DNA from: Welwitschia mirabilis
Taxonomy: Eukaryota
Length of the DNA stretch: 55,542 nt
Assembly: GCA_051453625.1 (NCBI GenBank)
Contig: JBOZIK010000001.1
Span: 3,222,760 to 3,278,301 of the forward strand
Reading direction: 5' to 3'
The position numbers and the translations under genes are program-made. Under the pieces are notes generated by a model. That model was not told where the DNA came from, searched no databases, and saw only the letters and a list, made by a program, of their open reading frames with translations. Shown piece by piece: positions 17,441 to 49,327 of the stretch. Position 1 is the stretch's first letter, and every line of letters begins with the position of its first letter.

Positions 17441-18530
17441 TCACATAACCACACAATGCTCCATGTCAGCCTCTCTCAGCCTCTTCATATGGCTCAGTAC
17501 ATTTTCATCGAATCTAAAGAGTGTTATGGTAGTCTTCCCAAAATGTGGAACCATTAGCTCATCGACCATCCTATAATCCTTAATATGTGAGTTCATCATT
17601 GCTTCCCAATAAATGACATTGTCCCTAGCCAACTACATCTATGTAAAATGAGAATCCTCTAGATACAATAATAGTTTAGTCTTTTAGCTAAAATAATCAA
17701 ACATAACATGCTGAATGATTTTCATCAGCCCATCACTGCATGACATCAAAATTGCAGAGTCTATAGTAAGCTTTAAAATAAAACAATCCTCATCTTAATT
17801 TTCTTCTTGTTGATGCACTTGGTGTAGGCGAACATGTTGGTCATCAATCTAGGATTTAGTTCTTGTAAGATATGCTAGAAAAGCCTTATAAACCCCTTGG
17901 ATGCTTGTGGAGTGAGCCATGACATGTGGCGTCATGCCAATTTGCTATTGTAGCCTACACACATTTTGTTCCTACCTATTACCATTTATATGTACCACAT
18001 ATTGGGCATCATTTATTATAGTATGAATTTGTCAGTCTCCCATGCCTACATCTAGTCAATGAAATTTTCATCAAATCTGTGATTAATTACTTGGAAAATG
18101 TCCAATTTTCACAAGTGCTATAGATCTCGTGTCTAATTTGGCTTTGCTAGACACCATTGATAAGGCATTCAAGCCTTTTGTATACTTTGCCATTGTGATT
18201 CACCAAGGGTCTACCTGAAAAAAAAAAAATCTCCTTGAGACTAAGTTTTTAAAAAATATCTTAAATTTAGACCTTTTTTCAATCTGCTATAAATTAAGAT
18301 TGTTGCAACTTCAAAGATGAAGATTTTGATCTCTAATGTGTGTATTACCTAACAAAAATACATGACAAAGATAATAGTGACTATAAAATGCATCGATTAA
18401 AGTCAATTAGCATGCATCTAAGTCCCAATGCTTAAAATGCCAACATCCTTAATGCAGATGAAGTCTAACATGGCTGACACATTAAGATTGAAGCCTTCAC
18501 TCTCTGCATCTAAATTGGTGCCTTTTACTA
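17441..18530 (-). pseudogene. PPR (PLS-class)-like coding fragments inside the internal region; paralogous copy at ~15300-16380
   Basis: 'EGFNLNVSAMLDFICIKDVGILSIGT*MHA' and 'ARDNVIYWEAMMNSHIKDYRMVDE...MKRLREADMEHCVV', plus 'GLNPRSITI' and 'FAILKSCS' in the other copy, resemble PPR L/S/P motifs. Heavily eroded. Confidence 0.45.
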
Positions 18531-18743
18531 CATGACTTCTCTAGGCCATTTCAGACTATGAAACCACTTGCTGCACTTGAGAAACTAGGATTCTCTTTGC
18601 ACTACACTAGGATTCTACTATGCTATTCTAGTTGTAATTGCTACTGTGGTTTTCTTGTGACATTAAAAAAATTGTCTTCATCTTTTGTGCTATGTAGGAT
18701 TGATGTGTTAAAATTATGAGGCTCCTCTTCTCTATTCATGTTC

Positions 18744-18755
18744 GCTCTAATACCA
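18744..18755 (-). promoter_or_regulatory. Primer binding site, tRNA-iMet type
   Basis: rc TGGTATTAGAGC, one transition from TGGTATCAGAGC, 2 nt from the LTR end. Confidence 0.85.
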
Positions 18756-18757
18756 TT

Positions 18758-18964
18758 TGTTGGATCTAAAGATCCATTATGCATAGAAGGTCCAAGAAAT
18801 GGTAGAAGTTCCTAGGGAGTATGCNNNNNNNNNNNNNNNNNNNNNNNNNNNNNTTCATTTCAGAAATAGAAATATATACAAATCTTATAAGGAAAATTAG
18901 GAAAATAGAGAGAAAATGGGAAGTGGTTGTAACAAACCACTTTAAAATGGGAAAATATCCAACA
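18758..18964 (-). repeat. 5' LTR of the three-LTR element (contains a small N gap)
   Basis: TGTTGGATCT...ATCCAACA, a perfect 8-bp terminal inverted repeat. Confidence 0.9.
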
Positions 18965-20604
18965 AGAAGATCAGGATACTTGATGCAGAAAAATGGAAAG
19001 ACCTATGATTTTCTTCTATATGGTATGAAAGTTTTATCCTTATCTTCCTTTCTTATTTTATACTTTTATATATGTAAAACTTTAATAATAAATAATAGTA
19101 AATTATGTCATTTCTCTTTTTATTATATGACTTTATGTGACATTATCTAACTTTTTGGCTTAATTGAAACATTAAAGATAATGTTTAAATTTGTTTTTAA
19201 GGGGATCAAGATTAAAATAAACATAATTTTTCTGAAATTATATTGAAAATATTTGAATTATGCATAAAGTCATACATTTTCTTTATTATAGTAATTTTTG
19301 AAAATTGAAAATTTACAAAGGTAATAAGATGCTTATTATGAATCTGAATTTTAACATTCTAATTTGCATGATTTAAACTAAATTTTATGATATATAAGAA
19401 CTAATAAAGGATTTCTAGCTTATTGATTTATATAAATTCAATTAAAATTATGATACATGAATAAGATATGTAAAATTTTTAAATTTTGAGATAGTTGTTA
19501 TAAAACTATAATGTGAGAACTTGTTAAGAAACTAGCAAAGGGAATAGTTGAGGGGTGTATTTCCACTATAATTTTTACATGTTTAGACCTTAAAACTTAG
19601 TAATTTAATATGTTTTAAAGATATAAATACCATATTTGTAGTTAATATGTTATTAACCATGTTCTATACATTTAATTCTAAAAGTGTTATTAAGACAGAC
19701 TGACTTTTAGTATTTTAGTTATAGGTTATCTTAAGCTATCTATACTTCATTAGATCTTAAAAGATTAAAGCGATTGACACTACTATCTAGACTACCAAGG
19801 CCATAGTTATTCTAGGATAAGTACATTCTATGAAGGAGGAAGAGCTAATCAAATGATAAGATAATAGATTAATCTTATAGCCTAGTACTAAATCAATCTA
19901 CAAAGACTAAGGACTATATATCTATTTCTTAATGCCCAAAGAAATCCATTGCTACTCATTTTTTAATAATAGAATGAATTAATGAATATATTCATCTATC
20001 ATTCATTCCTTCGTTGATCATGAATATTAGAGTTTACCATCATTGGAGCATTATTTATCATCATCCATTAGAGATCTGCTATTTTATATTTATAATTTTA
20101 ATGGCTATGATGAGGACTTACCTCTATTAGCAAGTTAACTTAATTAACTTAGTAATTATTAACATGATTAACAAACATGAAATAACATTCTATGAAAATA
20201 TGATATAGACATATAACATTAATTTCAAATATAATACAAAGAAAAGAAAACATTTTAGAGTTAGATGAGGCATGACAAAACACTTGGACTTATAGAAGTC
20301 TAAGTTAAAACTTAGATAATGGTTTGTTTATAAATCACATACCTAAAAATAGAATAATATTATTCACCATTCTATTATATTATTATGATGAAATAATTAT
20401 TTGCAATAGCATTAAATTATTAATAATTAATAATATTTTTTAAAATTTATTAAAGTTTTATTTTCTTACTTCTTATTTTACTATTCATAAAACAAATTAA
20501 ACTTCTACTCTTAATTCTAACATTATATCAAAACCTGTGGGATTTTCTTAAAACATAAAGTAGCACAAACATAAAATTTATTGATAAAAACTTAGAATAA
20601 GATT

Positions 20605-22686
20605 TGTAATATGATATTGTAATCTTAACAGAGTGAAATAAATTCATTTATTTCATTAACTAATAATGATAATTAACTTTAGTTATAATGGAAGTTATCA
20701 TTTGAATCATTATAATGAAGATTAATCTAATGTTGAAAAGATATGAGGAGGAAGGAAGTGAGTTTATTTCATTTAGTGCCAATTATTCAAAATCTTAGGA
20801 GTTAGAGTATCTAATCCTAGGAGAAATTAGTTCTTATAGTGTTACATGACTTATGATTTATTAGAATTAGAAGAAAACCCTACTAAATATTTATAGCCTA
20901 TAATTCTAATTAATCAAACTAAAGAATAAACTAGAAGCATTAAGATAAAAATTAATAATATTAATAAAGGACCTATTATAAATGTTGCGATATCAATTTA
21001 TAGGATTTTGATGGCGTATTTTTAGAACTTTTACAGGACATTTATACAGGTTTGGATGCAATTCTGATAATTATGGAGAGTTAATGGGATAACCATGGAA
21101 ACATACAATTCTTAACATATTTAGAGGCATTTCAGACATATTCTGGTACTTAGTGTTTTGAAGAAAGATTAGTGATGAATAAGGCTGATTTTCTTTAGCT
21201 GGAGAGATTTTTAAGATTATCATCTCCACTACCATTTCCATGACAGTCAGGACAACAACACTTTTAGTAGCCTATTATGACAATAATGTGCACTAAATTT
21301 AGGAGCCAATAAGCCCCCTTTTCTAAGGAGTGTCATTTCCATTATCATCCCCATGATATGAAGGATGACAACACAATTAAAACCAATTACAAGGCTGATT
21401 GTAGAGCTAAAAACTAATGAATTACCTATTATTATAGGGCATTGTCCCTAGTGTCATCCCTATGATAGTTAGGATGATAACTATTTTGTATAAATAGAAC
21501 TAAATTATTTTTTAATGGGGTCATGCACCCTATCTGGGCTACTAGGATTTCTTCTTTGACTTCTAGGGTTACAGCTCTAGAACCTTTAATGTAAAACTAT
21601 AAATACCTCCATCGTCCTTACTTCTAATTAATCTTTTATATTAGATATTCTTGTGATGAAAGTTTGAAGAATAAGAAGTTCATCCATTAGCTACAAAGAG
21701 AAAATGATCTTGATGTTGAGCTGAGTATCCTCTATTGAGGTGTTGCTACTTTGTTATAAGTGGATGTAAAGTCAATGATTAATTTAATTAATCTTTTTAC
21801 TCCTATTGTGTAAATGTCACTTATGGTTTAAGTTGATTATGGTTTAATGACAACTCCATAGTTTATTTAGATCATAAAGATAACCTTTGTTAAAGTTGAC
21901 TTTGTTAGTTTAGATTTTGGATTACATTCTATTTCATTTCATATTTGCATTATTCATATTCTATTTGGCACATATTATAGTTTTATGTTTGTTAGAAATA
22001 AGTGATAAACTCTTCTTAATTAATCTAAGTTATAAGAACTAATTCTTGTGAGAGGAGGATTGGAATCCAAATAGAACTCATTACACTTACATTTCATCTA
22101 TTACACTTGATCATCTTCATCTTGCATTGCATTGTCTTGTTGTTTATTTTTCATTTACTAGAATAGAAAAGAATAAAATACTTTATGAAAGCAATTTTCT
22201 AACTGCTAGCCTAGTGCCTCCAATGGATTATGACATTTGGGTTGATTCCTATCTATACTATTATGTGTTTTTTGCAAGTATTATGATTTATAAGTTTTGC
22301 CTAACACTTAAAGATTGTCTAAATTCATACCAAAATAAATAGTTATGATCTAAATATGTAAAGATGTATTCTTTCATTATGCTACTTAACCCTATGATAT
22401 TGGAGTGGATTAACTAGGTGGATGTAACTAAGAATAATCTTAGCTAATCCCCAAGGGCCCCAAGAGGGGAACTCAGGTTACAGTCCATATCTTTACCTTT
22501 GATCACTAGTCTAAGGTTATTCACTAATGATAAGGAATCTAATTCATTAATTTGAATAATAAATTCTACATTTTTTTCAAATTATTTGTTATTATTTATA
22601 TTGATCTTAGCATATGGATTTACATATTTCTTTTATACAAAGTAATACAAAAATAGTAAAATAGAACATTACATTTGGTATCAGAG
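20605..22686 (+). mobile_element. LTR (TGTAAT...ATTACA) with tRNA-iMet PBS, interrupted by a family-A LTR; left boundary approximate
   Basis: ...ACATTACA ends at 22673 and is followed by TT TGGTATCAGAG (22676-22686). Candidate TGTAAT starts at 20605 or 20618. Removing the insert restores CCTATTATAAATAG. Confidence 0.55.
20983..22337 (+). repeat. Family-A LTR, probably solo
   Basis: Starts TGTTGCGATA and is colinear over ~1.35 kb with 29189-30546 and rc 51068-52317. No family PBS or PPT adjacent. Possible TSD ATAAA (20978-20982 / 22335-22339). Confidence 0.85.
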
Positions 22687-25600
22687 TAAATAATAAAGCA
22701 GTAAGCTACTACTTTAAGAAAAATTAAGGAAAGAACTCAGTTTTATAAAAAAATTAAAGTTTTACATTAAGAAAATAATCCTAATGGTAAGAAGTATACA
22801 AGAAAAAGCTATGATATATTAAGCAAACAAGCCACTAGTAAAAATCATGGTGCATGACACCTTGAGAAGTGAAATACAGATTAGTACTGAGGAGGAAGGA
22901 GATCCTTCATGAAGAATGGACTAGGTTGTAACCCTCCACACCTAGGATAGAAGGCTCTGTACCACATAGAAAAACTTCCATCCCAATAGGCTATGTGATA
23001 AGAACTGTAGTACCAATATCAATCAACAAAAAATTTGCTATGGATTGAGTTGACTTGAAATCTAGTCCAAAGCTCTAGTTTAGAATGGTGTTAACTAACT
23101 GCTAGGACTTGCTAGCTGGGGGTTAGTCTTAAAATCTAATTTGAAGTTTTGACTTTAAGTTAGTATCAATATACTAGGCATTTATATGTTTTTGATTATA
23201 GAAAAATAGATATTGGGATTAGCTTGAATTCCAATTCAAATTTTTAACTTTGAGTTAGTATTAGTTAATCATGATATAAGTGTGTAAATGAAACTTATTA
23301 AGGAAGATAAATGGTTTTGAGTATGTAATCCAACTTTGAGTTGGCGTTAGCTCAAAAATTCAAGTTTTAGAAAACTAGCTTGAAGTCTTACTTGAATTTT
23401 TGTCTTTACATTAGTGTCAGAAAATCAAGAAATCTTTCTTTAGCTTCAATGTTTAATTTACGATGGCATCTTGCTAGAGAAAAAAAAAATTAATCCTCTT
23501 TTTATCCTTTTAAAATAAGACAAAAGAAAATCATTTTTGAGTTTTTAGAAATAGCTAAAAAAATTTTGTTTTGATTGCAAAACATCTACAAGTTTCATAG
23601 TAATTATTAATGATGTAGCTCCTGAAAGGAAGATTTGTTGTGTTTGTATAGTATCATAGAGCTCAATAATTCAAAACTAATTATAAATTGATCTAAAGTT
23701 TTAGTTTTAAATTGAATCTTAATCAATTTAGAATCTCTTGATTCTATACTTTCTTGANNNNNNNNNNNNNNNNNNNNNNNNNNNNNNNNNNNNNNNNNNN
23801 NNNNNNNNNNNNNNNNNNNNNNNNNNNNNNNNNNNNNNNNNNNNNNNNNNNNNNNNNTTAAAATAGTGCTATATTTTTATTGTAATTTAGTAGGTTTATT
23901 TCTATAATTTTTATTTTCCATAGCATTACCCTCTATTTCTCCCATGACACTAAGTAAAAAAATTCATATTTTTAGATATTTTTCCCACTTTTTTTAAGGT
24001 TTTATGTTTCTAGCTTTTATAGCATAATAATATGTTGTTTCCACTATCATCCCCATGACACATAGGATGATAGTGGCCAATTGTACTTTTTGAAATTTGT
24101 CCTTCTATTCAATAATTTTTCTTTTTCTCTATGGTCATTCCATTAATTATTCCCATGATGGTTAAAAAAAAACCTATTATACATCTTTTAAGTGTTAAGG
24201 ATTCAAAATTTTTAATAAAAGAATAAAACATCAAAGAGAGAAGAACTTAATCTCTACTGTGTACTTATCTTTCTTACTATATTGAATTAGATTCTCTTAT
24301 TATTCAATCAATAGTAATAGAAGGACCCTAAGGAAAATTCTTTCTAAAAGGAGGAGAAACATGAAAAAATTCTAAGGATAATGATAAGAAAACACATTGA
24401 GAATTTTTTGGAGAAAGAGGGAGAACAATACAAAAGGATGTTGAGAGTAGGAATTGGGCTCCTTCCTCTTCTTAACCATCTTATTCTTTTTCCTATTAGT
24501 TTCAAACTCCATATAGAAATGACAACAAAATTTTATAATATTTTAGAAATTCCACTTCATTTAGAAAAACTTTATATAATCATTTTTATTAATTCACATC
24601 TCTCATGCATTACTATGAAGAGGACAATCCACCTTACATGAATTACTATGAGGAAGAAAAAAATTTAATGAAAGATATGATTGATAAAATAAAGAAGAGC
24701 CAAGAAAATACCAATAAAAACCTAGAAAATTGGATTAAGATCTTTCAATAAATACTATTACAAAATCAAGGTTCTTTTAAAACATAACATCCTCAAACCT
24801 ATCCTTCTATATCCTACCTTGAGGAAAATGAGGAGAACTTAGAAATAATTGACAATAATTTTCACTTTTAAATAGATAATAAAAATTTGGATCAAACTTC
24901 AACATCCTACTCATTAGGAGATGAGAAAAAGGGAGATAATAATAAATCAACTCAATGTTTTAATAATCAAGATGAGGATGACCATTTATTAGATAATGAT
25001 ATTAAGGTATTAGATTATACCCTTGCCATCCATTTATTGCTAGATAATCTAGATGAGGAATCAATTCATGAATAATCTGAAAAAAATTTAATCAATAATG
25101 AAGATAATGATTTTATTTTTCTTAATAAATTTTTTAATAAATCCAATAATTTAGAAAATAAAAGTAATATTCAATAAGAGAAGAAAGATATAGTAACAAA
25201 CAATGATGAGAATAATGAAGAAACAACCTAAATGGTAAAAATAATAATGAATAGACTAACCATAATGAAGGACCCATAGAGATTCATTTAAACTTCATAG
25301 AGGCTAGACTTGTTTATTCTACCCTTACTTCTACATCTTTTCCATTTATGCTTTCATGTACAACTTCAAATCACATACTTCATTTCACTTCTACTTTTAT
25401 TTTCACATTACCTTATGATCTTGATAATGATAACCTTTCTCCATTTCTTCCATTTGAACCTTCATGTAATTCTCAAAGCCATGTTACTTTCCTTAACTTT
25501 TATAAAACTCATAATTTTGAAGAGTCTATTCCTCCTCTCTTTGAACTTCTTCCTTTCAAAAATCTATGTGATACTCAAAGTAACATCCTTTCTTTTTTTA

Positions 25601-26581
25601 TCAAGTCTACTTTACCTTATGATTTTAATGATTATTATTTTTAAAAGTTTGACTTAAAATATCTTAGAATTTGAAATTGGAATAAATCTTATCTTGTTGA
25701 TGATAATCCATGCTTAAAAATGATCTTAAGGATATTTTCAATCTTATTAAACATTCTCAAAAGCCCTTAAAAACATCTGGATCCATTCTTTGAGTTATTC
25801 CTTGCATGAATTTTATAGTGATACTCATGATTTATAATGTTTTAATAAGAGATTATATATCAATGAAATTTATCAATTCTTTATCTCTTATTTGGATTTT
25901 AAAATTTGTGTTGTTAAAGTTTGATCATTTTACTCTTTTTTCCTCGAATTGATTTTACTCCAAAATGATTGTATATATTTTATGTTTTATCAATTGATTT
26001 CTATTTGATTTGGCCCTTATTTTTTTTAAAAAAATATAATACACATTTTACATAACTAGTTAAATCTCTCAATGATTTAGTCCTTATCTTTTAGAAAAAG
26101 TACATCTTAAAATGGCTTAGTTGAAATCTCCAACCTAAACACTTGGGAAATTTAGAAGTTAATAAATAGAAGGTTAAAAATAATTGAAATATCTATTGAT
26201 TAAACTTAAACATGATAGAAGCACTTGTCTTGAATTTTTCTCTTACTATTATCTAAATTTCTTCCTTAGTTGATTCTCTTTGTAAATGTCATACTATCAC
26301 TTGAACATCTTTTACTTGATTAATGTTTTACTTTATAAAGTTACCATGACTAGTAAATCTTCTATTAGATATTTTAAGTGACAAGATTAGATTCATCCAA
26401 TCTTAAGACATTCATATATCTATGTACTTTATTTTGAAAAAAGATACCTTGGTTTCTTTTATGCTCTCTCAATGATGTAAGTCTTTAGTTGTTTAGATGT
26501 TTTTTATTGTTTCTTATTTTATTACTTCATCCTTATTCTTACAAGTACTAGGTCATGTGGAATCTACTATTTTGACTTAAA

Positions 26582-26624
26582 AGAAGAAGAAGAAGAAGAA
26601 GAAGAAGAAGAAGAAGAAGAAGAA
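26582..26624. repeat. (AAG)n microsatellite
   Basis: About 14 perfect units. A (CTT)n run at ~54028-54052 marks the homologous position in copy A3. Confidence 0.95.
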
Positions 26625-27123
26625 TGATCATGATCTTTTGTATCTAAACTAAAACCATGGTCATCATGATGTCCTACCACATGCACACCAAGGCAAATTT
26701 TCCCAAGAGAATCCTTTAGTAGTGTGATATGGTAGTTGTGGAAACTTCACTAGCAGGTTAGTTGGCCATGCTATGTGGTTTCTTACTCTTTTTATAGTGG
26801 TTATACTTCCTTCATCATGAAAAAAATGAAAAAATAAAAATAAATAATAATAATTTTAATTTAGAGGCTATGAGTCAATGATGTCCTTAGTGTCATTAGA
26901 GGCATTGCTTATTTTCTAGACTCAATTTTACATATAGCAATTCTACATGATCATTCTACTTTTTTGGATTCTGGTATTATTTTTGGGAATGAGCTAGTGA
27001 GTTTACTTTTGAGTAACTTTTGANNNNNNNNNNNNNNNNNNNNNNNNNNNNNNNNNNNNNNNNNNNNNNNNNNNNNNNNNNNNNNNNNNNNNNNNNNNNN
27101 NNNNNNNNNNNNNNNNNNNNNNN

Positions 27124-27170
<47 letters not shown>
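27124..27170. repeat. (GA)n microsatellite adjacent to a gap
   Basis: Directly visible. Confidence 0.95.
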
Positions 27171-27173
<3 letters not shown>

Positions 27174-29188
27174 AACAGAAAATAAAATAAATGAATAATG
27201 ATCATGATCTTTTATATCTTAACTAAAACCATGGTCATCATGATGTCCTATTGCAAGCACACTGGGGTAAATTTTCCCAAGAGGGACCTTTGTTAGTATG
27301 ATACAGTAGCTATGAAAACTCCATTAGGGAGTCAGTTGGCTATGTTGTATGGTTCCTTACTCCTTTGACAGTGGTTTCACTTCCTCATCATGGAAAAATA
27401 ATTTTTACTTAGAGGTCAAGGGATCAGTGATGTCCTAGTGTCATCAAAAGCATTTCTTATTTTCTAGACTTATTTTTCATATAGTACTTCTATACGATCA
27501 TTCTACTTTTTTTTGAATTCTAGTATTATTTTGGAATATAAGAAAGTAAGTTCATTTCTGAGTAGCTTTTGGTCTTATCATTCCTTGATTGAAAACATTA
27601 GATATACTTGGTCTCATCATAATCATTGCCTATTTAAGTGGTACTTTATGAGTTTTTTTTTTACATTATGTTATGCATCATTATTAGGTGATTTTTAACA
27701 AGGAACTTTGCCATGTTGAAATTTTGGATAGATAAAGAATCTTCTTCGTGTTCTTAGTTGTTCATTTTTATTATGTTTTATTTAGTCATTTTGTTTGGAA
27801 TTTTCAAAGTCATTTTCATATCTTTTTCCATATAATAATTAGGACTTAATAATTTGGTGGTTTTTGGTTGTCTTTTTATTTTCAATTGTAGTTTTTATCC
27901 ATAAGGATTATTTTTCTTTTAGAACTTTAATTGATGCATTTTTTTTAATTTGATTGATGTGTTCTTTTGTTTTATGCTAATGTCCTTTTTCCATTTCTTT
28001 ACCTTTAATTTTGCATACATCCACTTATAAAATATTAAATGCTTATTGCATTTGAGATATATTTGAGGATTTTATTTAGCATTGATTTTATCTATTTGAT
28101 TCCTTATCATAGCCTGATCCTTTTTTATTTCCTTGAGCTTTTCCTATTTTTGACTCCTTTACCATGATTAATTGGATGATGATTCTTAGCTTTTACCTAT
28201 CTTTTAGAGTTTATGATGACTTTTTGTGGCTTCACTGTTGCTATTCTCAATTATCTAATTCTACTTGAACTTTACTATTTTTCTAGATTCTTATTTTTTC
28301 TAGTGTCATCCCACTTATGTCATTTGGATGATTACATGAATAACACAACTCTTCTTAGCTTATTGCAATACAGGATGTATTGATTCCTCTGTGTAGGGGA
28401 AGGGAGGGAAGGATTGGTTTTTACAAAATCTTAAAGATATTTAAGCAAAAATTTTATTTATGAGGGTTATTTTGAGACTTCATGATACATATATATGGTG
28501 CACTGGTTGATATATGATTTTATATTACTTGTATGATATGTGTTATGGGTATTATTAGTAGGCCACAGTAACACAGTTACTGAACTTTCTTACAGGTGTA
28601 ATTTAAAATACTCAAGAGACCATGAATAAGAGAAGTAATATTATGATTATTTTTTCCTTCAAGATTTTCCCTTATAGAATGTATTTAAAACTCACTAATG
28701 GATTTGTATATATCATTTTGAATTATCACTNNNNNNNNNNNNNNNNNNNNNNNNNNNNNNNNNNNNNNNNNNNNNNNNNNNNNNNNNNNNNNNNNNNNNN
28801 NNNNNNNNNNNNNNNNNNNNNNNNNNNNNNNNNNNNNNNNNNNNNNNNNNNNNNNNNNNNNNNNNNNNNNNNNNNNNNNNNNNNNTAATGAAGATATTAG
28901 TACTTGTATTTTTTTGATGATCATGTTTGTAAGCATCTCATTTTTATTTTGATTTTTTAAGCCTATCATCCCAATTGTCGTCTAGAAAATATATAGGATG
29001 ACATATCTATTATGCATCCTATAGAGGTATTACATCAGTTAATTAGTTTTTTATATTTAATCCTACATGGTAAATATTTCTAAACTTAATTTAAATTTTC
29101 CTAGTTACTATTTATATTAATCAAATTAGCTTACAACATTGTTAATCACTTACTTTTTCAGGGATTGATAAGGCTAAGTAGGGGGTTA

Positions 29189-30546
29189 TATTATAATGTT
29201 AATTTATAGGATTTTTATGGGATATTTTGAGTACTTTTGTAGGACATTTATACAAGTTTAGATGCAATTCTAATGATTATAAAGAGTTGATGAGATGATC
29301 ATGGAAACACACAATTCTTGGCATATTTAGAAGCATTTTAGGCATATTAAGTACTTAGTGTTTTGGAAGAAGATTAATGATGAAGGAGGATCACTTGATT
29401 TAGCTAAAAAGCTTTTGAAGGATGTCATACCCATTATCATCCCCATGACATTCAGGACAACAAAACTTTAGTAGCTTATTACAATAACAACATGGACTAG
29501 AGCTAGGAGCTAATGAGTGCACTTTTTTAAGGAGATGTCATCTCTATTGTCATCCCTATGACATAAAGGATAGAAACAAATTTGGATCTAGCTATGAGGC
29601 CAATTGTAAATCCAAAAGATAAAGACTTATTTATTATTATGGGGCATTATCCCTAGTGTCATCCCCACAATAGTCAAGACTAACAACTATTTTGTATAAA
29701 TAGAACTAAATTATCTTGTAATAGGGTCATGCATCTCATCTAGGCTACTAGGATTTCTTCTCTAAATTCTAGATTTATAGTTCTAGAACCTTTAATGTAA
29801 AAATATAAAAACCTTTCTTGTCCTAACTTCCAATTCATCTTTTATACTAGATATTCTTGTGATAGAAGATCAAAAGATAAGAGGTCAATCCATTAGCTAT
29901 AGAGAGAAGATTACCTTGGTGTTGGGATGGAGTGTCCTCCATTGAGGTGCTACTACTTTGTTGTAAGTGGATGTAAAGTTAATGATTAATTCAATTACTC
30001 TTTTCACTCCTATTATGTAAATGTACCTTATGGTTTAAGTTGATTATGGTTTAGTGATAAATCTATAGTTTTGTTTAGATCATAAGAGAAACCTTTGTTA
30101 AGGCTAACTTTATTAGTTTAGGTTTTGCATTGCATTCTATTTCATTTCATATTTGCATTATTCATATTTTGTTTAGTACACCTTATAGTTTACATTATTT
30201 AGGAATAAGTGATAACCTCTTCCTAATTGATCTAAGTTATAAGAACTAATTCTCATGATAGGAGGATTAAAATCCAAATAGAACTCATTGCACTTGCATT
30301 TCATCCATTGCATTTCATTATCTTCATCTTGCATTATAGTGAATTGTTCTTTATTTTTCATTTATTAAAATAAAAAATATTGAAGTACTTTGTGAAATCA
30401 ATTCTCTAAATTCTAACCTAGTGCCTTCAATGGATTACGACATTTAGGTTAACTCCTATTTATGCTAGAGTGTGTTTTTCTGCAAGTATTGTGATTTACA
30501 AGTTTTATCTAAGGACTTAAATCTTGTATAAATTCATGTCATAATA
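29189..30546 (+). repeat. 3' LTR of copy A2
   Basis: Degenerate termini TATTATAATG...GTCATAATA; colinear with 20983-22337; directly follows the PPT. Confidence 0.88.
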
Positions 30547-31285
30547 ATAGAATATCAAAATATTATAATCCTTACATAATAAAAAATAATTCTATATAGT
30601 ATATGAACTACTACAGTTTTACATTTTAGAATGATAAATCAATCAAACTTAAATTGGCATGACTCATAAAGCTAATATGTTGGAGATGTTATATAAACAT
30701 CTTTTTAAATAAGTAGTAATACAGATATGAAATTAAGAATAAATAGCATTACTAACATGATGTTATTACTATTCAATAAAGACAAAGTTTATCATTATAA
30801 CTAAAGGCTAAAATAACATAAGAATTCATGTTTTCATTCATAACAGAATACCAAAATCCATTTTCTTCTTCCTACTTCATGAAAAAATATTGATGAAATA
30901 GTTCTAATATAATCTCATCTATATTTTCTTTAATAAATAATTAAGATATCTGCTAGTAAATCATATTTTAAAAAGTTCATATATCATGCTTATCAAATTT
31001 AGTAATAAATACACTTGTGAAATTAAATAAAGAATAAATTAATTAAAAATTTTAAATATTTTTAAAATTCACATGCTAAATCTATAAAAGGCCAAAATTT
31101 AAGCTTATTTTACCCTTTTTTCCTTTTTTTAACTAAATAAGTTTTAAATATTAATGTATCAATGATTTCGTACATAGTTTAGCATTTATTTAGCATTTCT
31201 ATGAGTAAGTTTTAGATTACTTACTACAATTTTTCTACATCGTATCTACAATGGTAATTTTTTTATATATTCTCCATGTTTTTCC

Positions 31286-32022
31286 TTTTTTTGAAAAATA
31301 AAAAACCAACTTGCAAACTCTATTTATTCATAAAAAGTACTTATAATATTGAGTAGAAATGTTCCCTTATAGTAGAATTATATTGCAAACACTAGAGATT
31401 ATCAAAAAAGAAAGATTAATTTTTGTAAAAGGAATATGCAATAGCAAATAAAAGAAATAAAAGAGAGTAAAAAGGAGTAATAAAATGGATGAAGCTATAT
31501 ATGAAAAACTCCTATATTTTTAGAAGAGATTCTAATGATATCTCTACACTAAATGCTCTCAAGTTTATCTACCAGGATCTTGAAAGCTTGTTTAACTTCT
31601 TTGAATGCTTCAACTACTTTAGGCTCTTATTTGGGTAAAGTTTGAGAGAAGGTTTCCTATAAATCATTTTGTTAATGCTTTTGGAGTGACTAACTTCTAG
31701 CATGAGGAATTGGCATTTCTGCATCCCTTTAATTATTGTAAATAGAACTAAGCTCCTAGCCTTCTCTAAGTTAAGCTCTTGAACCTCTAGTTCTTGGCCT
31801 AGCTCATGTTGAGACTTACCTTGATTATGTTAAATCTCCTCCTCTTATGGATCATTGTGATACTTTACTACACACATTTTTACTTCTTTTGGATTTTTTA
31901 GAGGCTATATCCCTTCTTCAAAGCCTAAGGGCAGAGCTATTTCAGCTTGTTCTTTAAAGGAAAAAATTAGAACTACTTCATTGATCTAATTATGGTCTAA
32001 GCTGCTTTGTAGATTTCTTCTA
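31286..32022 (-). mobile_element. 3' end of a second J-domain-bearing LINE-like element, cut by the SIRE insertion
   Basis: J-domain remnant followed by a T-rich 3' UTR, AATAAA (rc 31323-31328) and A7 (T7 at 31286-31292). No ORF2 is visible because the element is interrupted at 32023. Confidence 0.65.
31555..31790 (-). pseudogene. DnaJ J-domain remnant (second copy)
   Basis: 'ELNLEKARSLVLFTIIKGMQKCQFLMLEVSHSKSINKMIYRKPSLKLYPNK/[frameshift]/PKVVEAFKEVKQAFKILVD'. YPNK (tac cca aat aag) is two transitions from HPDK. Confidence 0.8.
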
Positions 32023-33590
32023 TGAGGATTGTTGATCTCATAGGAAAGGGATGATTTAATTGTAACAAATGAAATTTAAATTAACAATAGAATAAAATTC
32101 ATAATAAAAAAGCACCTTACTAAGATAATGTGAATTCCCAACCTGGGTACATCCATACACAGAGGGTGTTTTTTACTCAAACCTTTAGATATTCTTGACC
32201 TACAAGAAAATAGTGGTTTTCTAGTGTACCACTAATATTATAATAAATTGGAGTATCCTTGTAAAGCAACACTCTCTTCCCTAGAAGGGAATAGCAGTTT
32301 TCATAAGTACATGATAAACCTTATAATAATGAAAGTCTCCTTACAAGGAAATACTCTCTTCCCTCTAAGGAAATAGTGGTTTTCAAAATTGCATCATGAA
32401 TCTTAAAAGAGTGAAAGTCTCCTTGCAAGATAGCACTCTCTTTTCCATAAGGAAATAATGGTTTTCTATTTTGCTAATAATCTTAGAACAAACAAGGGCT
32501 CACAGGCACTATCTCAAATGCACACCTATACAAGGATTTCCTTACATATAGATTGATTCAATAATGGACTTACAAGAATATTCAATAATAAGATAGTTTA
32601 CAATGTAAAAACAAAAGTATAATACAATAATAAGATCTATCTTTGATGAAGATTTGAGAGTCTTGATGTTATTGTTTTCATCATGAGTATAAGTGAAGAA
32701 TGTAGTAATGAAGATCCAAGAGTGAATAATGAAATCAATGAAAGCTCCTTTTTAAATGATGACTTTGATTTTTCATGAGGAGTTCCTTTCACTTGTGTGT
32801 TCTTTATTCTTTATCTGATTGTTATTTTTCAAGGTTTAAAAAGATGCATATTTGTTAAGGTTTCAAATATTCTTATTTATTTCATAATATTGAGGCTTTT
32901 TATGGTCAAAGAAGATCTAGCCATTTGATCTTGAAAGGTAGTAATTTAATTTTTTAATGGTTGTGTAATGGATAGAAAATGTTTAAGTGTTATTCACGTA
33001 ACTTTAGTTTTTGTCAATATGAACTTTGATATGAGATGTCTTCATTTTTGTAGAGGTCTACTAATAGTCAAACATGTTTACCTTGTAGATGTCTTCAATC
33101 AACTTACTCAGATTTCAATGAAACTTGCTCTATATTATCTTTGGACCCTTGTTATCATGAATTTGCAATGTACAAGTTGATAACTCAATTGAAACATAAG
33201 ATATTAGTTAAAAACTAAATTAACTCTATTACCTATTTCAACTCAGTATAGATGTCTTCAAACATATAGTCATCTTCATCTGTGTTAGGTCTAAGTTTCA
33301 GCATAATTGTCTTAATGAGATAGTTATCTTAAGCGTGTGACATGTTTTTTAATACATTTAAGACATCTTCAATTTCCTAAACATATATACTAGATACGTC
33401 TTCTATTTTTCAGATATCTTTAAACAACTAATTTTATAGTTTAACATTTGTTCCTTTTTATGAGATGTTGTCTTTAAAGATCCATCATGGTCTAAGGCCT
33501 ATCAATGTCTAATTTTCTTGGTATTGACCTATCTAAAAAATGATATAAAATATTTGATAAGTAAAATTATAAAAACTAGATTTACCAACA
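32023..33590 (-). repeat. SIRE 3' LTR with ~58-bp tandem units (~32205-32470) and AGAYRTCT motifs
   Basis: rc starts TGTTGGTAAA at 33590; colinear with 49328-51067. Confidence 0.88.
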
Positions 33591-38336: not shown

Positions 38337-39579
38337 TGTTAACATGTAAAAATCAATAATTATATTAAGCATTATAGGCCAATTTATTATAAATGAAGAT
38401 ATTAATTTAATTGTTTTAATCACAAAATATGTTTTCTATTATTTTTAAAATAAAATTAAATGTTATGTTTTTCTCCATATTAAATTGTAGATATTTATCC
38501 ACTTCTAGAATACATGGTGGGAAATGGACTTAATTCCATATAAAATGATGATGAAAAATGGAGAAATGAGGTAATGATACATAGTAAAAGTAATTGAAGA
38601 CACATGGTAGAGGCATGTGGATGTGGCATTAGAGACATGTGGCAATAGCGCTGACTGGTAAAGAAATTTGATTCAAAGTCCACATGTTGGACTTATCATG
38701 ATGAATATTCCATGAAATACAACATGATGAAGGCTCCATCAAACGCTACCTTAAGGCCTCCACCAAATTCTACAAGATAGAATCTTATGTATCTAATGCT
38801 AAATAATGAAGATTTTACCTAATGCTATAAGCCAAGAGTTGTAACCACTCCTTTCCTCTATCTCTCCCCTTAAACCCTTAATTATAGGCATCTTTGCCTT
38901 GAAGAAATTAGAGACTTTAAAGCATCAACTTATGATGGCTTTCTAGGCAACTCTTTGATGGAATCTAGTCTTCAAGGATTGTTGAGGAGTTCTTCTTACT
39001 TTCTTCTTTCTTTATTGTAAAGTTATTATTTTTGTAATGCAAAATTTATTTTTCTTTGATCTTGATTCATGAGTAATATCATAATTAGGATGATTAGATA
39101 ACTTCTTTAATTATCAAGTCTAATTTAGTTATATGAACTCCTCTTATTACTTAGTATCTTAACTTCATAGATCTTGAGTGCTTTACAATTCCTTACTTTT
39201 TATTGTTATTTAAGATTAAAATGTTACTTGAATTCATTATTTATCATATGATGGATGAGATTATACCTCATCAATTAGACAAAAAGCCCTTGATGGTTTT
39301 TATTATTTTGCAAGAAGGTGGTTGGATAACTTTGAAGTAAAGAATTGTGAAGGACAAATTGATGATACCTTATAGCTAGTTTACTTTTCTATCCTCTCAA
39401 ACAAATTTTAAACCCAATTCTAAATTTCGTCTCTTCTCCCTTTTAATTTTCTTTTGGTAAATTCCATTATGATTAAAGTTAATGTAATTATAAGAAATAC
39501 CAATTTTATTCTTGAGGAAGAACAATACTAAGTGTTGTACTTAGTTTAAATATGAGACATTGTACTATAAAGTTAATCA
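38337..39579 (+). repeat. 5' LTR of Athila B
   Basis: TGTTAACATG...GTTAATCA; colinear with 47529-48787. Confidence 0.93.
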
Positions 39580-40579
39580 TATTTTGGCACTACTACTACT
39601 AGGAATAACGACATGGTAGTAGCTTAGAGTAATACTATTTTTTCTTTTTACAAGTTTTTATTTTTCTAGTGGAGTTACTGGTCCTTCTTCCAATGATACC
39701 TGAACTGGTCCCTTTTTCCTCTTTTTTTTCTTTATGTTTCTTTTTCTTTTCTTTCTAATGATTGATACTGATCCTTCCAGTGTTATACTAAACTGATTCC
39801 TTTTTGTTGTTTTTGATTTCATAACTTGTTTTTTGCAAGTCTTAACATTTGTTGCACATTTATTTTGAGAGAGGAAAAAAAACTCTAAAAACTTAAGGAG
39901 GAAAAAAAAATTCTAATCAAACTTTATGATTACATTATGTGATTTTCCTTTTTGTTACATTTTCTATGTTTTTACATGCATATAAAAATTAAAATTTTAT
40001 TAAAACTAGTTTGTGATTCTTATTATGTTTTACTTTGTCATTTTATGGTATTTTTAAATGATTAAAATCTTTATAAATTTTCTCATGATTTCACTTGATT
40101 TTATTTATGTCTCTGTTTTATTTCATTATAACCTTGACACTGTAAACATTTTGCCTATTATTTTGAAACTTCTTGTAACCATCTAAACCTATCTCTTGCA
40201 TGATCTAGACCTATTATAGAATAGGAAGATTAACCTAAGATAACATGGACTCCTTTACCAATCTTTAAAGGATGATATAACTTAGAACCCAAACTGAGCT
40301 CATGAGGACTCTCAAGAATAAACCTTAACTATATAAAATAATCAAAAAATCAAATTACCTTACCACAAGATAATCCAAATGACTTACTTAATTCCTTTTA
40401 TGGAACCTTATCAAATCAAGAAATTCTCAATAGGTTATAAACTTATTATTTCATCCAAGAAATGGCTAAATGGCAAGTTTCCCTCTTGAATGCTGTAAAT
40501 CAACTTAGGTAAACCCTTTGTAATTACCTCTAATCGCAAATCTTAGGAACATCTTCTTGCATAGTACTACCACATATTA

Positions 40580-43500
40580 ACTAAAGGATAGAATTTAAAC
40601 CTTCCACTATCCAACTATTACTCCATTTTCATGGNNNNNNNNNNCTTGAATCTGAAGATCCTTACTTACATCATAAGGAATTTAAGTGTGTCTTATCAAG
40701 CATCCCTCAATAGCCTAATACTCATCATGTACTTATACTTACTTTATTATATTTTTTCCTTTTAAAAAAGGGCAAAATCTTAGTTGTACACCTTGAAACC
40801 CTTCTCCATTATAAATTAGATAGAATTGAGTAAAGCCTTTATTTCTAAGTTCTTTCCTACTCATAAGATAAATGCCTTTAGAAAAGAATTTATAAACTTT
40901 TAATAGAAAGACCATGAAACCTTCTCCTAGACCTTAAAAAGATGTAAATATTTATTATTAAGATGCCCCCAATAGGATTTCAAATAATGTAGAGAGATGA
41001 GTTTTTTTATAATGAGTCATCCACAAATAATTGTCAACTAGTGGAAATAATGAGTCATGCTAACTTCCTTAGCATGCCCTTAGATGAGGTTTGGAGTATC
41101 TAAAAAGTGTATCTGAAATATTGAAAAATTGGGAGACACTAATAGAACATTCAAAATCACATCATCTAGTTAAGTCAACCAGTTTCTTCAAGATCTTAGA
41201 AAACTTGGAGATGAATAACAAAATTGACAAACTAATAAAAAAGTTAAAATCATTAATTTCCTCATCCTCAACATCACCTATGGTCACTAAGCCTTAGTGT
41301 TTAATTTACCATATTGACACTCATGAAACTACTAAATTACCATATATCCCATTATTTCAAAACATAGTAATGAATAGGTAAATGTAGTAGGACAATGGTA
41401 AAATCCCAAAAATAATTCATACTTAAAGACTTATAATCCTAGTTGCCGTAATCCTCCAAATTTCTTTGGAAAACAAGACAACATTTCATAACAAAATGTT
41501 TAGCTTAAGAATTCATTTTCCTTATCTTCTAATTCTTATCCTTCATCTTCAAACCATAAAATATCTTTATCTAACTCATCAAATGATACTTTCAAAATGT
41601 CCATGGAAAAATAAGAATAAATAAATCAAAAGTTTTACTAGATCTAAACCAACTCCAACAAATCACTAATCACATTCTTTCATTAATAAACCAAAGAAAA
41701 ATATGAAAACTCCTTGAGCACCCAACTATATTCAAAAGAAGTTAGATTTGTATAAGGCATAGAACACATAAAATAAACCAAGTCTATACACCTTAGGAGT
41801 GGAAAAGAGCTAGAAAATCCATTCATACAAAATAAGCCTAAGGATAAATAAGACCTCACAAAAATAAGGAAAAGGATAAGAGTGAAGATTTATTGCCTAT
41901 TTATAAAGAGTCATTACCCTTTCCCAAACAACTTAGGAAGGAAAATATAATGAAAAACAATTAAGATCTAGAAATTTTCAAAGAAGTTAAAATAAACATT
42001 CCCCTTCTAGAAGCCATCAAATAGATCCCTTCCTATGATAAAATCTTGAAGGACTTATGCACTATAAAAAGGGGAATGACTGTTAAATTTAAATNNNNNN
42101 NNNNNNNNNNNNNNNNNNNNNNNNNNNNNNNNNNNNNNNNNNNNNNNNNNNNNNNNNNNNNNNNNNNNNNNNNNNNNNNNNNNNNNNNNNNNNNNNNNNN
42201 NNNNNNNNNNNNNNNNNNNNNNNNNNNNNNNNNNNNNNNNNNNNNNNNNNNNNNNNNNNNNNNNNNNNNNNNNNNNNNNNNNNNNNNNNNNNNNNNNNNN
42301 NNNNNNNNNNNNNNNNNNNNNNNNNNNNNNNNNNNNNNNNNNNNNNNNNNNNNNNNNNNNNNNNNNNNNNNNNNNNNNNNNNNNNNNNNNNNNNNNNNNN
42401 NNNNNNNNNNNNNNNNNNNNNNNNNNNNNNNNNNNNNNNNNNNNNNNNNNNNNNNNNNNNNNNNNNNNNNNNNNNNNNNNNNNNNNNNNNNNNNNNNNNN
42501 NNNNNNNNNNNNNNNNNNNNNNNNNNNNNNNNNNNNNNNNNNNNNNNNNNNNNNNNNNNNNNNNNNNNNNNNNNNNNNNNNNNNNNNNNNNNNNNNNNNN
42601 NNNNNNNNNNNNNNNNNNNNNNNNNNNNNNNNNNNNNNNNNNNNNNNNNNNNNNNNNNNNNNNNNNNNNNNNNNNNNNNNNNNNNNNNNNNNNNNNNNNN
42701 NNNNNNNNNNNNNNNNNNNNNNNNNNNNNNNNNNNNNNNNNNNNNNNNNNNNNNNNNNNNNNNNNNNNNNNNNNNNNNNNNNNNNNNNNNNNNNNNNNNN
42801 NNNNNNNNNNNNNNNNNNNNNNNNNNNNNNNNNNNNNNNNNNNNNNNNNNNNNNNNNNNNNNNNNNNNNNNNNNNNNNNNNNNNNNNNNNNNNNNNNNNN
42901 NNNNNNNNNNNNNNNNNNNNNNNNNNNNNNNNNNNNNNNNNNNNNNNNNNNNNNNNNNNNNNNNNNNNNNNNNNNNNNNNNNNNNNNNNAATGGATTAAT
43001 GGAAAATGCTATGAAGTTATCTTTGAATGATGAAGGGATAGAGAACATAGATAGGGTAAAATCTCTTGTTAAGAATCAAGAATACACTTCTCATTCTTTT
43101 AAAAATGATAAAATTAGAAAGTCTCAAGAAATGTGCCCCATAACCCAAAACAAAATTGACTTATAACTCAAACCCTCACCTAATAATCTTAAATATGCTT
43201 TCTTAGGGAATAACTTTGTCTTTACGGTAGTCATAAACTCTTTATTGAGCCCATCCAAAGAAGATTAATTTCTTAGACTCTTAAGAAAGAATAAACAAAA
43301 AATAGGATGGATTCTCTCTAACATTAGAGGCATTGACCCCAGTATTTGCATGTACCATATCTACTAAGAGAAAAATAGTAAACCATTAGTTGAAGCACAA
43401 CATAGGATAAATCCAACTATGTGTGAAATTATTAAAAATAAGGTAATTAAACTTCTCAATAATGGGATTATCTATCCTATTTCAGATAGTAAGTGGTAAG

Positions 43501-45985
43501 TCCAACTCATACCATAGCTATTAAATTAGGAATGAACCTTATCCCTAATGAGAATAATGAGCTTATCCCTATTAAACCTATTATAAAATGAAGGATGTGT
43601 ATTAATTATAAAAAACTAAATGCTATATCTAGAAAAGAGCATTTTTGTCTTCCTTTTCTAAATCAAATTTTAGAATAACTCATAGGACATTCTTTTTACT
43701 ATTTCTTAAATGGTTGCTTAGGTTATAGCCAAATTGAAATTGCTACTAAAGATCAAGATAAAACCTTCTTCACTTATCTCTATGAAATATTTGCTTACAA
43801 ATGAATGCTCTTAGGCTTATGCAATGCACTTCCACTTTCCAATGTTGGATGTTTGGAATCTTCTCTGATTCAGGTTTTGAATTATTAATGGATGACTTTT
43901 CAATTTATGAAACTTCATTTAACCATTATTTAAGTAACTTAGAACATGTCCTTAAAAGATGCATTACAAAATGCATTGTACTCAACTAGGAAAAATACCA
44001 CTTTATGATAAATCAAGGTATAGTTTTAGGACATGTCATCTCGAAGGAGGGAATTTAGGTAGATCCTATTAAGATATCATTGATCACATACCTATCAACC
44101 TCCTAGAAACAAAAAGACATTAGATCTTTCTTAGGGCACACAAGATATTATAGGCAATTCATTAAGTATTTTATCAAAATTTCTAAACATTTATGTGATC
44201 TTTTAAGCAAGGATGCTTTCTTTGAATGAAATCTAGAGTGTCAAAATGAATTTGAATAAATTAAAACTAACTTCCACATCCATTATCCAACCACCTAATT
44301 AGAAGTTATCTTTTGAACTTATGTGTTATGTAAGTGACTTTACAATAGAAGCAATGTTAAGATAAAGAGTTGATAAAAATCAAACTGTAATTCACTATAA
44401 TAGTAAAACCTTAAATAATGCTCAAATCAATTACACTATCATAGAGAAGGAGCTTCTAGCTATTTTCTTTATCTTTAAAAAATTTAGGCAATATCCTTTA
44501 GGATCTAAGGTAATTATTTACATTGATCACTCAACCCTTAGATATCTTTTTGTTAAAAAGGATTCAAAACATATCTTATTAGATGGATCCTCCTTCTTTA
44601 AGAATTTGATTTACATATTAAGAATATGAAAGGCTTTAATAATGTTATTGTAGATTACCTTTCACACATATCTCCAAATAATCTATAAACATTTTTACTT
44701 ATTGATGATACTTTTCCTAACAAACATCTCTTTCAGTCAAAGAAATACTTGGTTTGTAGATATTACTAGTTATTTTGTTTATAAAACTATTCCTTTCCAC
44801 TAGATCATTAATGATTAAAAGAGGTTATTAAGCTAATATTTCTTTTTGGATAGCCCCTACCTTTTTAAATATTACTCAGATCAAGTCATTTACAAATGTA
44901 TCCCTCAAAGTAACATCTAAGAAATACTTAAACATTATCATTTTGAGTCTTGTAAGGCTTACTACTTAGCTAACAAGACTGTAATAAGAATCCTCTAATT
45001 CAGTTTTATTAGTGATCAATTTTTAAAGACTCCTATCTTTACTATAAATCTTGTGATAAATATTAATATTTAGGAAGTCTTTCTCATAGAAAAATGATAT
45101 CATTAAATCCCAGCCTGTCTCTTGAACCCTTCGACATATGGGGAATTGATTTATAAGGCCCTTATCCATCATCTAGTGGGCATTAATGTATTCTTATTTA
45201 TATTAACCATGTAGTTAAATGGATCAAAGCTTATGGTTGTCAACAAAATGATGCTAAAACTATAGTTAAATTCTTTAAAAATAATGTTTTAACTCATTTT
45301 AATTATCCACATGTTTTAATTAGTGATGAAGAGACACACTTTTGTAATAAAATATTCAATAACCTTCTCACTAAATATGGGGTTACACATAAAGTTGCAA
45401 CATCTTATCACCTTTAAACAAGTAGCCAAGTTGAGGTTACACATAGGGAACTTAATAAAATCCTTTAAAAAGTAGTAAACTTAATATAAAAAGACTGGTC
45501 TTTTAGACTTAACAATGTCTTATGGGTGTATTACATGGCTTATAAAACACCCTTAGGGATGTTACCTTTTTGATTAATCTATAGTAAATCATGTCAGTTA
45601 CCTATATAACTTGAGCATAGGGCTTACTAGGTGATCAATAATATGAACTTAGACTTAGAGGTCACAAAGAAAAATAGCGCCATACAACTTAATGGACTAG
45701 ATAAAAATTAGAAGTGATGGCTATAATAGCATAAGAATAAATAAGGATAGGATGAATAAGTTTCATGATTAATATATCCTTAGAAAAACTTTTCAGAAGG
45801 GAAAACTAATCTTACTATGTAACTCACACTTACATCTTTTTCTAGGAAAGCTAGTAGCTTAGTGGAAGGAATCTTTCTTAATAAAAAAAAGGTTTTGCCA
45901 CATAGAGTTATTTTCATTGAAAATACCAAAAACAATTAACTCCTTAAAGTTAACGAACATCATCTAAAACATTATCACTCATTTC
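40580..45985 (+). pseudogene. Athila B gag-pol remnant (protease presumably in the 42095-42989 gap)
   Basis: gag 'ESEDPYLHHKEF' and 'FISKFFPTHK'; 'VKINIPLLEAIK*IPSYDKILKDLCT'; RT 'MCINYKKLN' and 'FELLMDDFSIY' (~43885-43899); RNase H 'YTIIEKELLA'; integrase 'PFDIWGID', 'LISDEETHFCN', 'KVNEHHLKHY'. Confidence 0.92.
42095..42989. other. Assembly gap (others at 3355-3454, 18825-18853, 23758-23857, 27024-27123, 28731-28885, 40635-40644, 46664-46763, 49504-49603)
   Basis: Runs of N. Confidence 0.99.
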
Positions 45986-48787: not shown

Positions 48788-48792
48788 ATCTT

Positions 48793-49300: not shown

Positions 49301-49327
49301 TTTCATAAGTTCCTACTTTGATATCAC

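Follow-up and report, generated by a model that had tools for sequence, protein, structure and literature searches.

The H-P-D loop that joins helices II and III lets J-domain proteins dock on Hsp70, and this contact stimulates the ATPase of the chaperone. One such protein, SILENZIO of Arabidopsis, silences transposons together with MBD5/6 and so links a J protein, Hsp70, and silencing, as set out in part of PMC8616336. Cargo genes are another relevant precedent: extra open reading frames (ORFs) near the 3′ end, sometimes in antisense, are described in part of PMC7264820 for the long terminal repeat (LTR) retrotransposons Grande, RIRE2, and Retand. Here, we analyze a stretch of 55,542 nucleotides of Welwitschia mirabilis DNA (assembly GCA_051453625.1, contig JBOZIK010000001.1, positions 3,222,760 to 3,278,301; hereafter, the window), which holds two decayed J-domain sequences on its minus strand, copy 1 and copy 2, the second being the subject of an earlier note made from the letters alone. 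An ORF of gene-like character, formerly under selection and now found in several copies, emerges from the data, which do not indicate its carrier. Tentatively, and short of calling it probable, we read copy 2 as a dead retrocopy of a short J-domain ORF that belongs to a small dispersed family.

Two J-domain relics and their relationship

Judged by its sequence, copy 2 is a true J-domain relic. It survives as two minus-strand pieces, A and B (Table 1), which are separated by a frame break of one base and whose frames overlap by 1 base. The Y and N codons of its Y-P-N motif each lie 1 transition from the H and D codons, in agreement with the earlier note, which had placed the J-domain peptides on this strand and had proposed that Y-P-N reverts to H-P-D by two transitions. 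Three defects disable copy 2: Y-P-N where H-P-D belongs, the one-base frame break, and an early stop. In a comparison with Pfam, piece B fell short of significance against the DnaJ model (PF00226), with E 0.022 over 20 residues and 15.3 bits where the cut-off is 27.8 bits; there was no Pfam match for piece A, and the frames of copy 2, read through, matched 0 families.

These Pfam results would also be in keeping with a chance resemblance, copy 2 being no J-domain relic. To place the pieces, we used a local J-domain profile made of the 150 best matches of copy 1; it contained no window sequences and was run unfiltered against all 2324 six-frame window ORFs of at least 15 aa, with the caveat that its member sequences were picked by likeness to copy 1. 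The top four of the 2324 ORFs were the two pieces each of copies 1 and 2 (11610-11771, E 1.7e-14; 31552-31626, E 0.0024; 31617-31829, E 0.056; 11775-11894, E 0.57). The pieces of copy 2 are collinear on this profile, with A at positions 12-49 and B at positions 54-71, and when read through with X at the break they scored 31.6 bits (E 1.4e-8). Pieces that are adjacent, collinear, and second and third in rank make chance hardly credible, as does the finding that copies 1 and 2 are mutually best matches in the window and have the helix III motif QAFK in common.

Neither copy retains H-P-D, since copy 2 reads Y-P-N and copy 1 reads H-P-E; both are relics of a J-domain family, not working members of it. 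In the ancestral protein of copy 2, the H-P-D loop would have served to contact Hsp70 and stimulate its ATPase, of which copy 2 would no longer be capable.

Copy 1 passes the Pfam threshold: it matched DnaJ with E 2.9e-10 and 40.5 bits, which exceeds the 27.8-bit cut-off, and its best relatives among solved structures were the class A J domains dnj-12 (2och_A) and DNAJA1 (E 2e-9). By tblastn, no other sequence in the window matched copy 1 or copy 2 as well as they matched one another (13/25 residues identical, E 0.001; 12/21 for piece B, E 2.65e-4), and neither tblastn nor the local J profile found a third J copy there. A BLASTP alignment of copy 1 with piece A (16/56 identical, E 3e-4) begins 24 residues before the J domain. 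When this upstream stretch of 24 residues was compared without gaps, the BLOSUM62 score was 21, and just 4 of the 14114 24-mers in the window score as high. Helix III reads QAFK in both copies, a motif present in 0/150 of the best J-domain matches; among 132 J domains, Q was found 16 times, F 8 times, and K 12 times at the respective positions, for a joint expectation of ~7e-4. Taken together, these peptide comparisons indicate that copies 1 and 2 are, to all appearances, specifically though distantly related, and they bear out two statements of the earlier note, that copy 2 is a second, diverged copy and that the similarity extends upstream of the J domain. The window was flagged for holding two copies, and the closeness of copies 1 and 2 consequently weighs less than it appears.

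At the nucleotide level, similarity was not obvious, as had been remarked before: blastn detected none between copies 1 and 2, and local alignment of the DNA gave z = 4.7 for the coding parts only, the values being 1.25 for the 3′ untranslated regions (UTRs) and 1.13 for the upstream parts. Likewise, tblastx of 10500-14500 against the window found no sharing beyond the J part. Among 71 aligned codons, 35, 50, and 28 were identical at positions 1, 2, and 3, respectively (Fisher p = 3.6e-4 for position 2 vs position 3), a pattern that an alignment based on protein similarity itself biases somewhat toward position 2. Because identity is far higher at codon position 2 than at position 3, the two lineages diverged as working genes, and the size of the effect indicates that most of the divergence between copies 1 and 2 arose under purifying selection on the protein. 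This pattern upholds the earlier proposal that the ORF was once under selection.

The repeated unit and the A-tract

To look beyond the window, contigs of two runs, X1 and X2 (not the elements of the same labels in Table 1), and raw RNA reads of runs X13 and X16 were aligned to 30300-32300 at ≥80% likeness; the two contig runs come from two organisms. Position 31711 was overlapped by 10 contigs in run X1 and by 19 in run X2, most of which carry the letter giving Pro, the same as copy 1. Likeness of ~81-84% to 31482/31484-31623 was found in records 7 and 12, and to 31653-31817 in record 13, in each case within contigs of 1.0-1.8 kb, and the contigs bearing other copies differ from the copy 2 locus outside the coding part. 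The copy 2 locus itself was found in records 6, 8, and 11 at a depth of ~3-6. Record 11 of run X2, a run that may be the source of the assembly, spans 30984-32164 with 7 differences and 0 gaps, so the frame break is present in it.

Summed contig depth was 33-108 on the four bins of 31573-31840 and fell to 0-3 in bin 31841-31907; on the other side, the listed sites in 31344-31386 had 2 contigs each, except for three run X2 sites with 1. A unit of ~360 bp, consisting of the ORF and 60-70 nt of flank on each side, is thus present at several loci, perhaps 5-10 if there are ~2 contigs per locus. The supposed 3′UTR is not part of this repeated unit. The earlier note had inferred an abundant, multi-copy family; the 10 and 19 contigs at 31711 sustain "multi-copy," and "abundant" lacks support, with at most 10 to 19 contigs at any listed J site. 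The reading of a multi-copy, once-selected ORF holds because further coding copies occur in the contigs and because of the codon-position pattern. No RNA reads were found on the J bins in runs X13 and X16, about one-quarter of each of which was read, at ≥80% likeness.

A short repeated unit of ~360 bp in a transposon-packed region could also be a captured exon or fragment of a host J gene that was spread by a Helitron, a Pack-MULE, or an LTR element. In that case the carrier transposon would be shared among copies, yet the contigs are unlike the copy 2 locus outside the coding part. The DNA that surrounds copy 2 shows no homology to the interior of the adjacent LTR element Y, and the codon-position pattern would demand two separate captures from diverged paralogs. 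We regard capture as improbable.

Below copy 2, the earlier note had seen a 3′UTR and a poly(A) end with the same geometry as at copy 1. The A7 run at 31286-31292 lies 257 nt past the stop, a placement that is not beyond chance, given 33 and 32 A runs of at least 7 on the two strands of 55.5 kb, or ~1 per 1.65 kb. There is no change in the fraction of guanine plus cytosine (GC) at this A-tract, and the unit common to other copies ends near 31482, ~190 nt short of A7GGA5; the end of the repeated unit at copy 2 is marked by neither a poly(A) nor an A-rich terminus. With the UTRs of copies 1 and 2 unlike each other, other copies devoid of this UTR, and GC unchanged, the claim of a "3′UTR + poly(A) end" could not be maintained, and the geometry of UTR and poly(A) at copy 2 is only suggestive. 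The 14-mer AAAAAAAGGAAAAA is found at the A-tract and again downstream of it, and this pair may be a target-site duplication left by a small insertion that entered the A-tract later.

Candidate carriers and the setting in the window

Evidence for a long interspersed nuclear element (LINE) comes from the neighborhood of copy 1, where a remnant resembling zf-RVT (PF13966), a zinc-binding region of reverse transcriptases, lies upstream on the same strand (Table 1). The zf-RVT matches reached E 0.018 and E 0.0033 (18.5 bits), under the 27.5-bit cut-off, and a Reticulon match that is probably spurious scored equal to zf-RVT in one scan. The translations flanking the remnant contain motifs that we take to be typical of plant L1 ORF2. 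Pfam searches of read-through frames near copy 1 did not find RVT_1, Exo_endo_phos, or RVT_3, and a control block of 6.9 kb treated in the same way gave 0 families at E ≤0.05; scans at this sensitivity covered all but ~34 kb of the window.

The LINE-like remnant and copy 1 differ in composition. GC is 0.31 in the LINE-like part, 0.385 in 11300-12800, and 0.19 from the A7 run at 11292-11298 onward. The GC-richer block that holds copy 1 is bounded by an exact 10-mer, AAAAATAATT, at 12918-12927 and 11287-11296, a candidate target-site duplication; the chance of a flanking repeat of at least 10 nt at this block is 0.039-0.054. Because of the GC jump and the flanking 10-mer repeat, these data suggest that the J block of copy 1 is a separate insertion of 1.6 kb; a J ORF belonging to the LINE would agree with them less well.

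One account holds that a plant non-LTR lineage has the J ORF in its 3′ region as cargo and that copies 1 and 2 are the 3′ ends of two subfamilies. In line with this, the zf-RVT remnant (E 0.018 and 0.0033) is on the same strand 1.2 kb upstream of copy 1, no A run of at least 7 lies between the two, and the 6.9-kb control block had 0 Pfam families, so that weak matches are not dense. The account also accommodates an ORF once under selection, a family that is multi-copy and silent, the lack of an annotated relative among the proteins searched, and an A-tract at a similar distance below both copies. Yet zf-RVT is below the Pfam cut-off and is equaled by the probably spurious Reticulon match, 0/200 window ORFs of at least 45 aa match a LINE domain, and between the remnant and the J block, where an AT-rich tract bears the flanking 10-mer, GC rises abruptly from 0.31 to 0.385. 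The 3′ end, expected to be the most abundant part in a LINE family, is here the least repeated part; the UTRs of copies 1 and 2 are unrelated; and little upstream sequence survives at copy 2. LINE cargo is thus unlikely in our estimate. The LINE context that the earlier note had predicted for copy 2 found no footing, since only 212 bp are left upstream and the sole LINE evidence is the sub-threshold zf-RVT near copy 1.

In contrast to LINE cargo, the retrocopy reading would have the copies arrive as reverse-transcribed, polyadenylated transcripts, with the LINE machinery acting in trans, and not as the LINE's own coding sequence. On this reading, the J block of copy 1 would have integrated as an independent unit of 1.6 kb in the A-rich tail of an older LINE remnant, with both in the same orientation. 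Copy 2 would lie in an island of old DNA (1.5 kb) that was later cut off on both sides by LTR-retrotransposons. For copy 2, retroposition is favored by AATAAA 30 nt before A7GGA5; for copy 1, it is favored by the A7 run exactly at the fall of GC (0.31 to 0.19), together with the exact 10-mer flanking the block. From these marks, we infer a retrocopy origin of copies 1 and 2.

Several observations count against a retrocopy origin. The marks of retroposition at copy 2 are weak, A7 runs being common and GC unchanged at the A-tract; the 5′ end of copy 2 is lost, so a target-site duplication is untraceable; and other copies are without the 3′UTR of copy 2. At copy 1, the 10-mer lies in AT-rich DNA (p ~0.05), and a TATA-like CTATAAATA ~40 nt inside the block fits an in-place gene better. 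The nearest relative of copy 2 among 151 J domains is copy 1 by a narrow margin, 30.0 vs 28.0 bits. No parent gene was found, although the word-based J searches covered proteins of ≤167 aa and the representatives were clustered, so that a full-length host parent may have been missed. Finally, two related copies on the same strand within 20 kb (~10 kb before element X1 was inserted), beside the tandem relics of DUF620 genes, suit tandem paralogs.

This last point leads to the view that host J-domain genes decayed in place, copies 1 and 2 being old tandem paralogs and the others further members of the family. Copies 1 and 2 share a strand and, with element X1 taken out, would be ~10 kb apart, and both adjoin the tandem-duplicated DUF620 relics of 14485-18965, a GC-richer stretch. 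Conservation of the coding part alone among other copies, identity at codon position 2 far above that at position 3, and the TATA-like CTATAAATA at the GC boundary above copy 1 are all as such genes would leave them. This history does not readily explain the A7 run exactly at the GC drop below copy 1 or the 10-mer repeat that bounds the block; no RNA reads were seen at ≥80% likeness in two runs, no further J-protein exons were detected nearby, and no annotated protein relative was found, the last being a weak point. Decay in place is an account to which we assign only a minor share of belief. Beyond the carriers considered here, the remainder of our probability is reserved for explanations not thought of.

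Database searches bear on the source gene. A phmmer search with copy 1 against 1.84 billion representatives returned 271 proteins at E ≤1e-3, all generic J domains with ≤55% identity; a single match, a protein with six J repeats, reached E ≤1e-10. Twenty of the phmmer matches were checked by name and comprised nematode, fungal, and bacterial/metagenomic DnaJ proteins and two plant J proteins, which we presume to be of the DUF3444 type. Word-based searches found nothing for copy 1 among proteins of 52-167 aa and gave 26 candidates, none confirmed, for the alignment of copies 1 and 2 among proteins of 13-167 aa; for the LINE-like frame of 12700-13798, none of 3304 candidates among proteins of 201-641 aa reached E ≤0.01. 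In metagenome contigs, 208 stretches matched a pattern and no relative was confirmed, while a degenerate motif pattern had 0 matches; viral contigs gave 2 pattern matches and no relative. In a literature search, no LINE or other non-LTR element turned up with a J domain.

Separately, a hypothetical protein of Buddleja alternifolia (P0014), which is a prediction, contains at least five decayed J-domain fragments reading YPDKNK; J-domain fragments would thus be amplifiable in other plants, too.

What the locus means depends on the carrier. If the copies merely belong to a retrocopied or decayed J gene family, they are ordinary pseudogenes in a transposon nest. We give small credence to the alternative that the J ORF serves a plant retroelement lineage as working cargo, either as a LINE 3′ module or as a LINE-accompanying retroposon, with copies 1 and 2 as dead members of two old subfamilies. 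Were it true, this would be a non-LTR element with its own Hsp70 co-chaperone domain, for which the literature search found no precedent. Selection could then have favored recruitment of Hsp70 to the ribonucleoprotein of the element or interference with J-domain-dependent silencing of the SILENZIO type, and a testable link would exist among transposons, Hsp70, and J-domain-dependent silencing. Polyomavirus T antigens carry a J domain and would be a parallel to such retroelement cargo.

The window is AT-rich, plant-like nuclear DNA with a GC fraction near 0.27. A Pfam scan of its 200 stop-to-stop ORFs of at least 45 aa identified Ty3/gypsy-type RT_RNaseH at 8494 and 44366, integrase at 45187 and 55039, and one DnaJ at 11610-11771; no LINE domain was found in these 200 ORFs. 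LTR-retrotransposons are nested around copy 2 (Table 1). Its upstream side, in the coding sense, is severed after 212 bp by an LTR-retrotransposon insertion, and the continuation would lie beyond element X2, past 55542. The AACA end of the X-family LTR can be read only in the third X copy, element X2, at 51068. An origin of the island as the internal 3′ end of Y was examined and rejected, local alignment of 31441-32051 with 48786-49357 scoring 21 and the null 23.3 ± 2.7.

Other observations concern the neighboring elements. Repeat Y contains ~80-bp tandem repeats at 32180-32490 (and at 49680-49970), where summed contig depth is 30,000-60,000 in two organisms, far above that of the remaining Y; the ~80-bp unit may also exist as a satellite. 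At 51067/51068, the second LTR of Y ends directly against the terminal ..AACA of an X-family LTR in inverted orientation. Because no spacer separates the LTR ends, one of the two elements, Y or X2, was inserted right beside the other. Within element Z, Pfam gave a weak, sub-threshold match to Med22 (E 9.5e-4) on the plus strand at 41088-41294, which may be a captured gene fragment or noise. The decayed gene island that adjoins copy 1 is a tandem duplication at 14485-18965 with a unit of ~2.3 kb, 80% alike. Duplicates of 51-77 bp flank gaps of 100 N at 46587-46663/46764-46840 (100%), 49427-49503/49604-49680 (100%), and 3304-3354/3455-3505 (98%); they look like scaffolding or gap artifacts, not biology.

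Table 1. Positions of the J-domain relics, their surroundings, and the nested elements in the window
Feature	Positions	Strand	Remarks
Copy 2, J-domain relic	31552-31781	minus	
Copy 2, piece A	31617-31829	minus	Translation ends ..IYRKPSLKLYPNKSLK, then stop
Copy 2, piece A, J-domain part	31629-31709	minus	Helices I-II, FLMLEVSHSKSINKMIYRKPSLKLYPN
Y-P-N at the H-P-D site of copy 2	31629-31637	minus	
Copy 2, frame break	31626-31628	minus	Base 31626 belongs both to the final codon of piece A and to the opening codon of piece B
Copy 2, piece B	31552-31626	minus	Helix III with the preceding end of the HPD loop, EPKVVEAFKEVKQAFKILVDKLESI; stop codon at 31549-31551
24 residues preceding the copy 2 J domain	31710-31781	minus	QELNLEKARSLVLFTIIKGMQKCQ; similar to copy 1
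Stretch common to other copies at ≥80%	31482-31840	minus	J ORF with ~60-70 nt on each side
AATAAA and A7GGA5 below copy 2	31278-31328	minus	AATAAA at 31323-31328, A7GGA5 (31278-31292) 30 nt downstream; "poly(A) end" of the earlier note
Second 14-mer AAAAAAAGGAAAAA	31117-31130	minus	147 nt downstream of the first (31278-31291); direct sequence reading
Old-DNA island holding copy 2	30564-32041		1478 bp, flanked by the 3′ LTR of element X1 and the 5′ LTR of Y
Copy 1	11610-11894	minus	Full J domain, H-P-E, one in-frame TAG at 11772-11774
GC-richer block holding copy 1	11287-12927	minus	GC 0.385 vs 0.31 and 0.19 alongside
zf-RVT (PF13966) remnant	13121-13264	minus	1.2 kb upstream of copy 1; frames read through stops
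DUF620 gene fragments (plant family)	15302-15463, 15572-15721, 17444-17632	minus	Pfam
LTR-retrotransposon X1	20982-30563	plus	LTRs 81% alike, begin TGTT; self-BLAST
3′ LTR of element X1	29083-30563	plus	Very high contig depth at the LTR end
Repeat Y, 5′ LTR-like	32042-33588	plus	Partner at 49348-51067, 79% alike; self-BLAST
Element Z	38337-48785		Nested within Y
Element X2, third X copy	51070 to window end	minus	

Comparison with known systems

SILENZIO is a host gene, and it is likened to the copies here by description and not by sequence. The extra ORFs of Grande, RIRE2, and Retand resemble copy 2 in its position, which is antisense to, and directly upstream of, the LTR of Y; unlike those ORFs, the island of copy 2 is not homologous to the internal region above the other LTR of Y. 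Plant L1-type LINEs have a zf-RVT region in their ORF2, and a remnant resembling it precedes copy 1 on its own strand; unlike in these LINEs, no reverse transcriptase or endonuclease of this kind was detected in the Pfam scans of the 200 ORFs and of the read-through frames near copy 1.

The J domains of class A/B Hsp40 proteins, such as C. elegans dnj-12 and human DNAJA1, differ from the copies in having the usual EAYE in helix III where the copies read QAFK, and in the copies H-P-D is altered and the frames are broken. Scans of ORFs and read-through frames with Pfam found no G/F region, zinc finger, or C-terminal domain of Hsp40 with the copies. The order of helix I, helix II, H-P-D loop, and helix III is the same, and so is the distance of 8 residues from H-P-D to the Phe of helix III, which is seen in 50/131 of the J domains examined.

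Processed pseudogenes and LINE-made retrocopies remain the comparison behind the reading that we tentatively prefer. The copies depart from them in that no parent gene was found in the searches above, the duplication at copy 1 has p ~0.05, and the 3′UTR is absent from other copies. They resemble them in layout, a coding part followed by 260-310 nt and then an A run, and the block of copy 1, which has GC jumps and an A-rich repeat of 10 nt at its borders, adjoins a LINE-like remnant.

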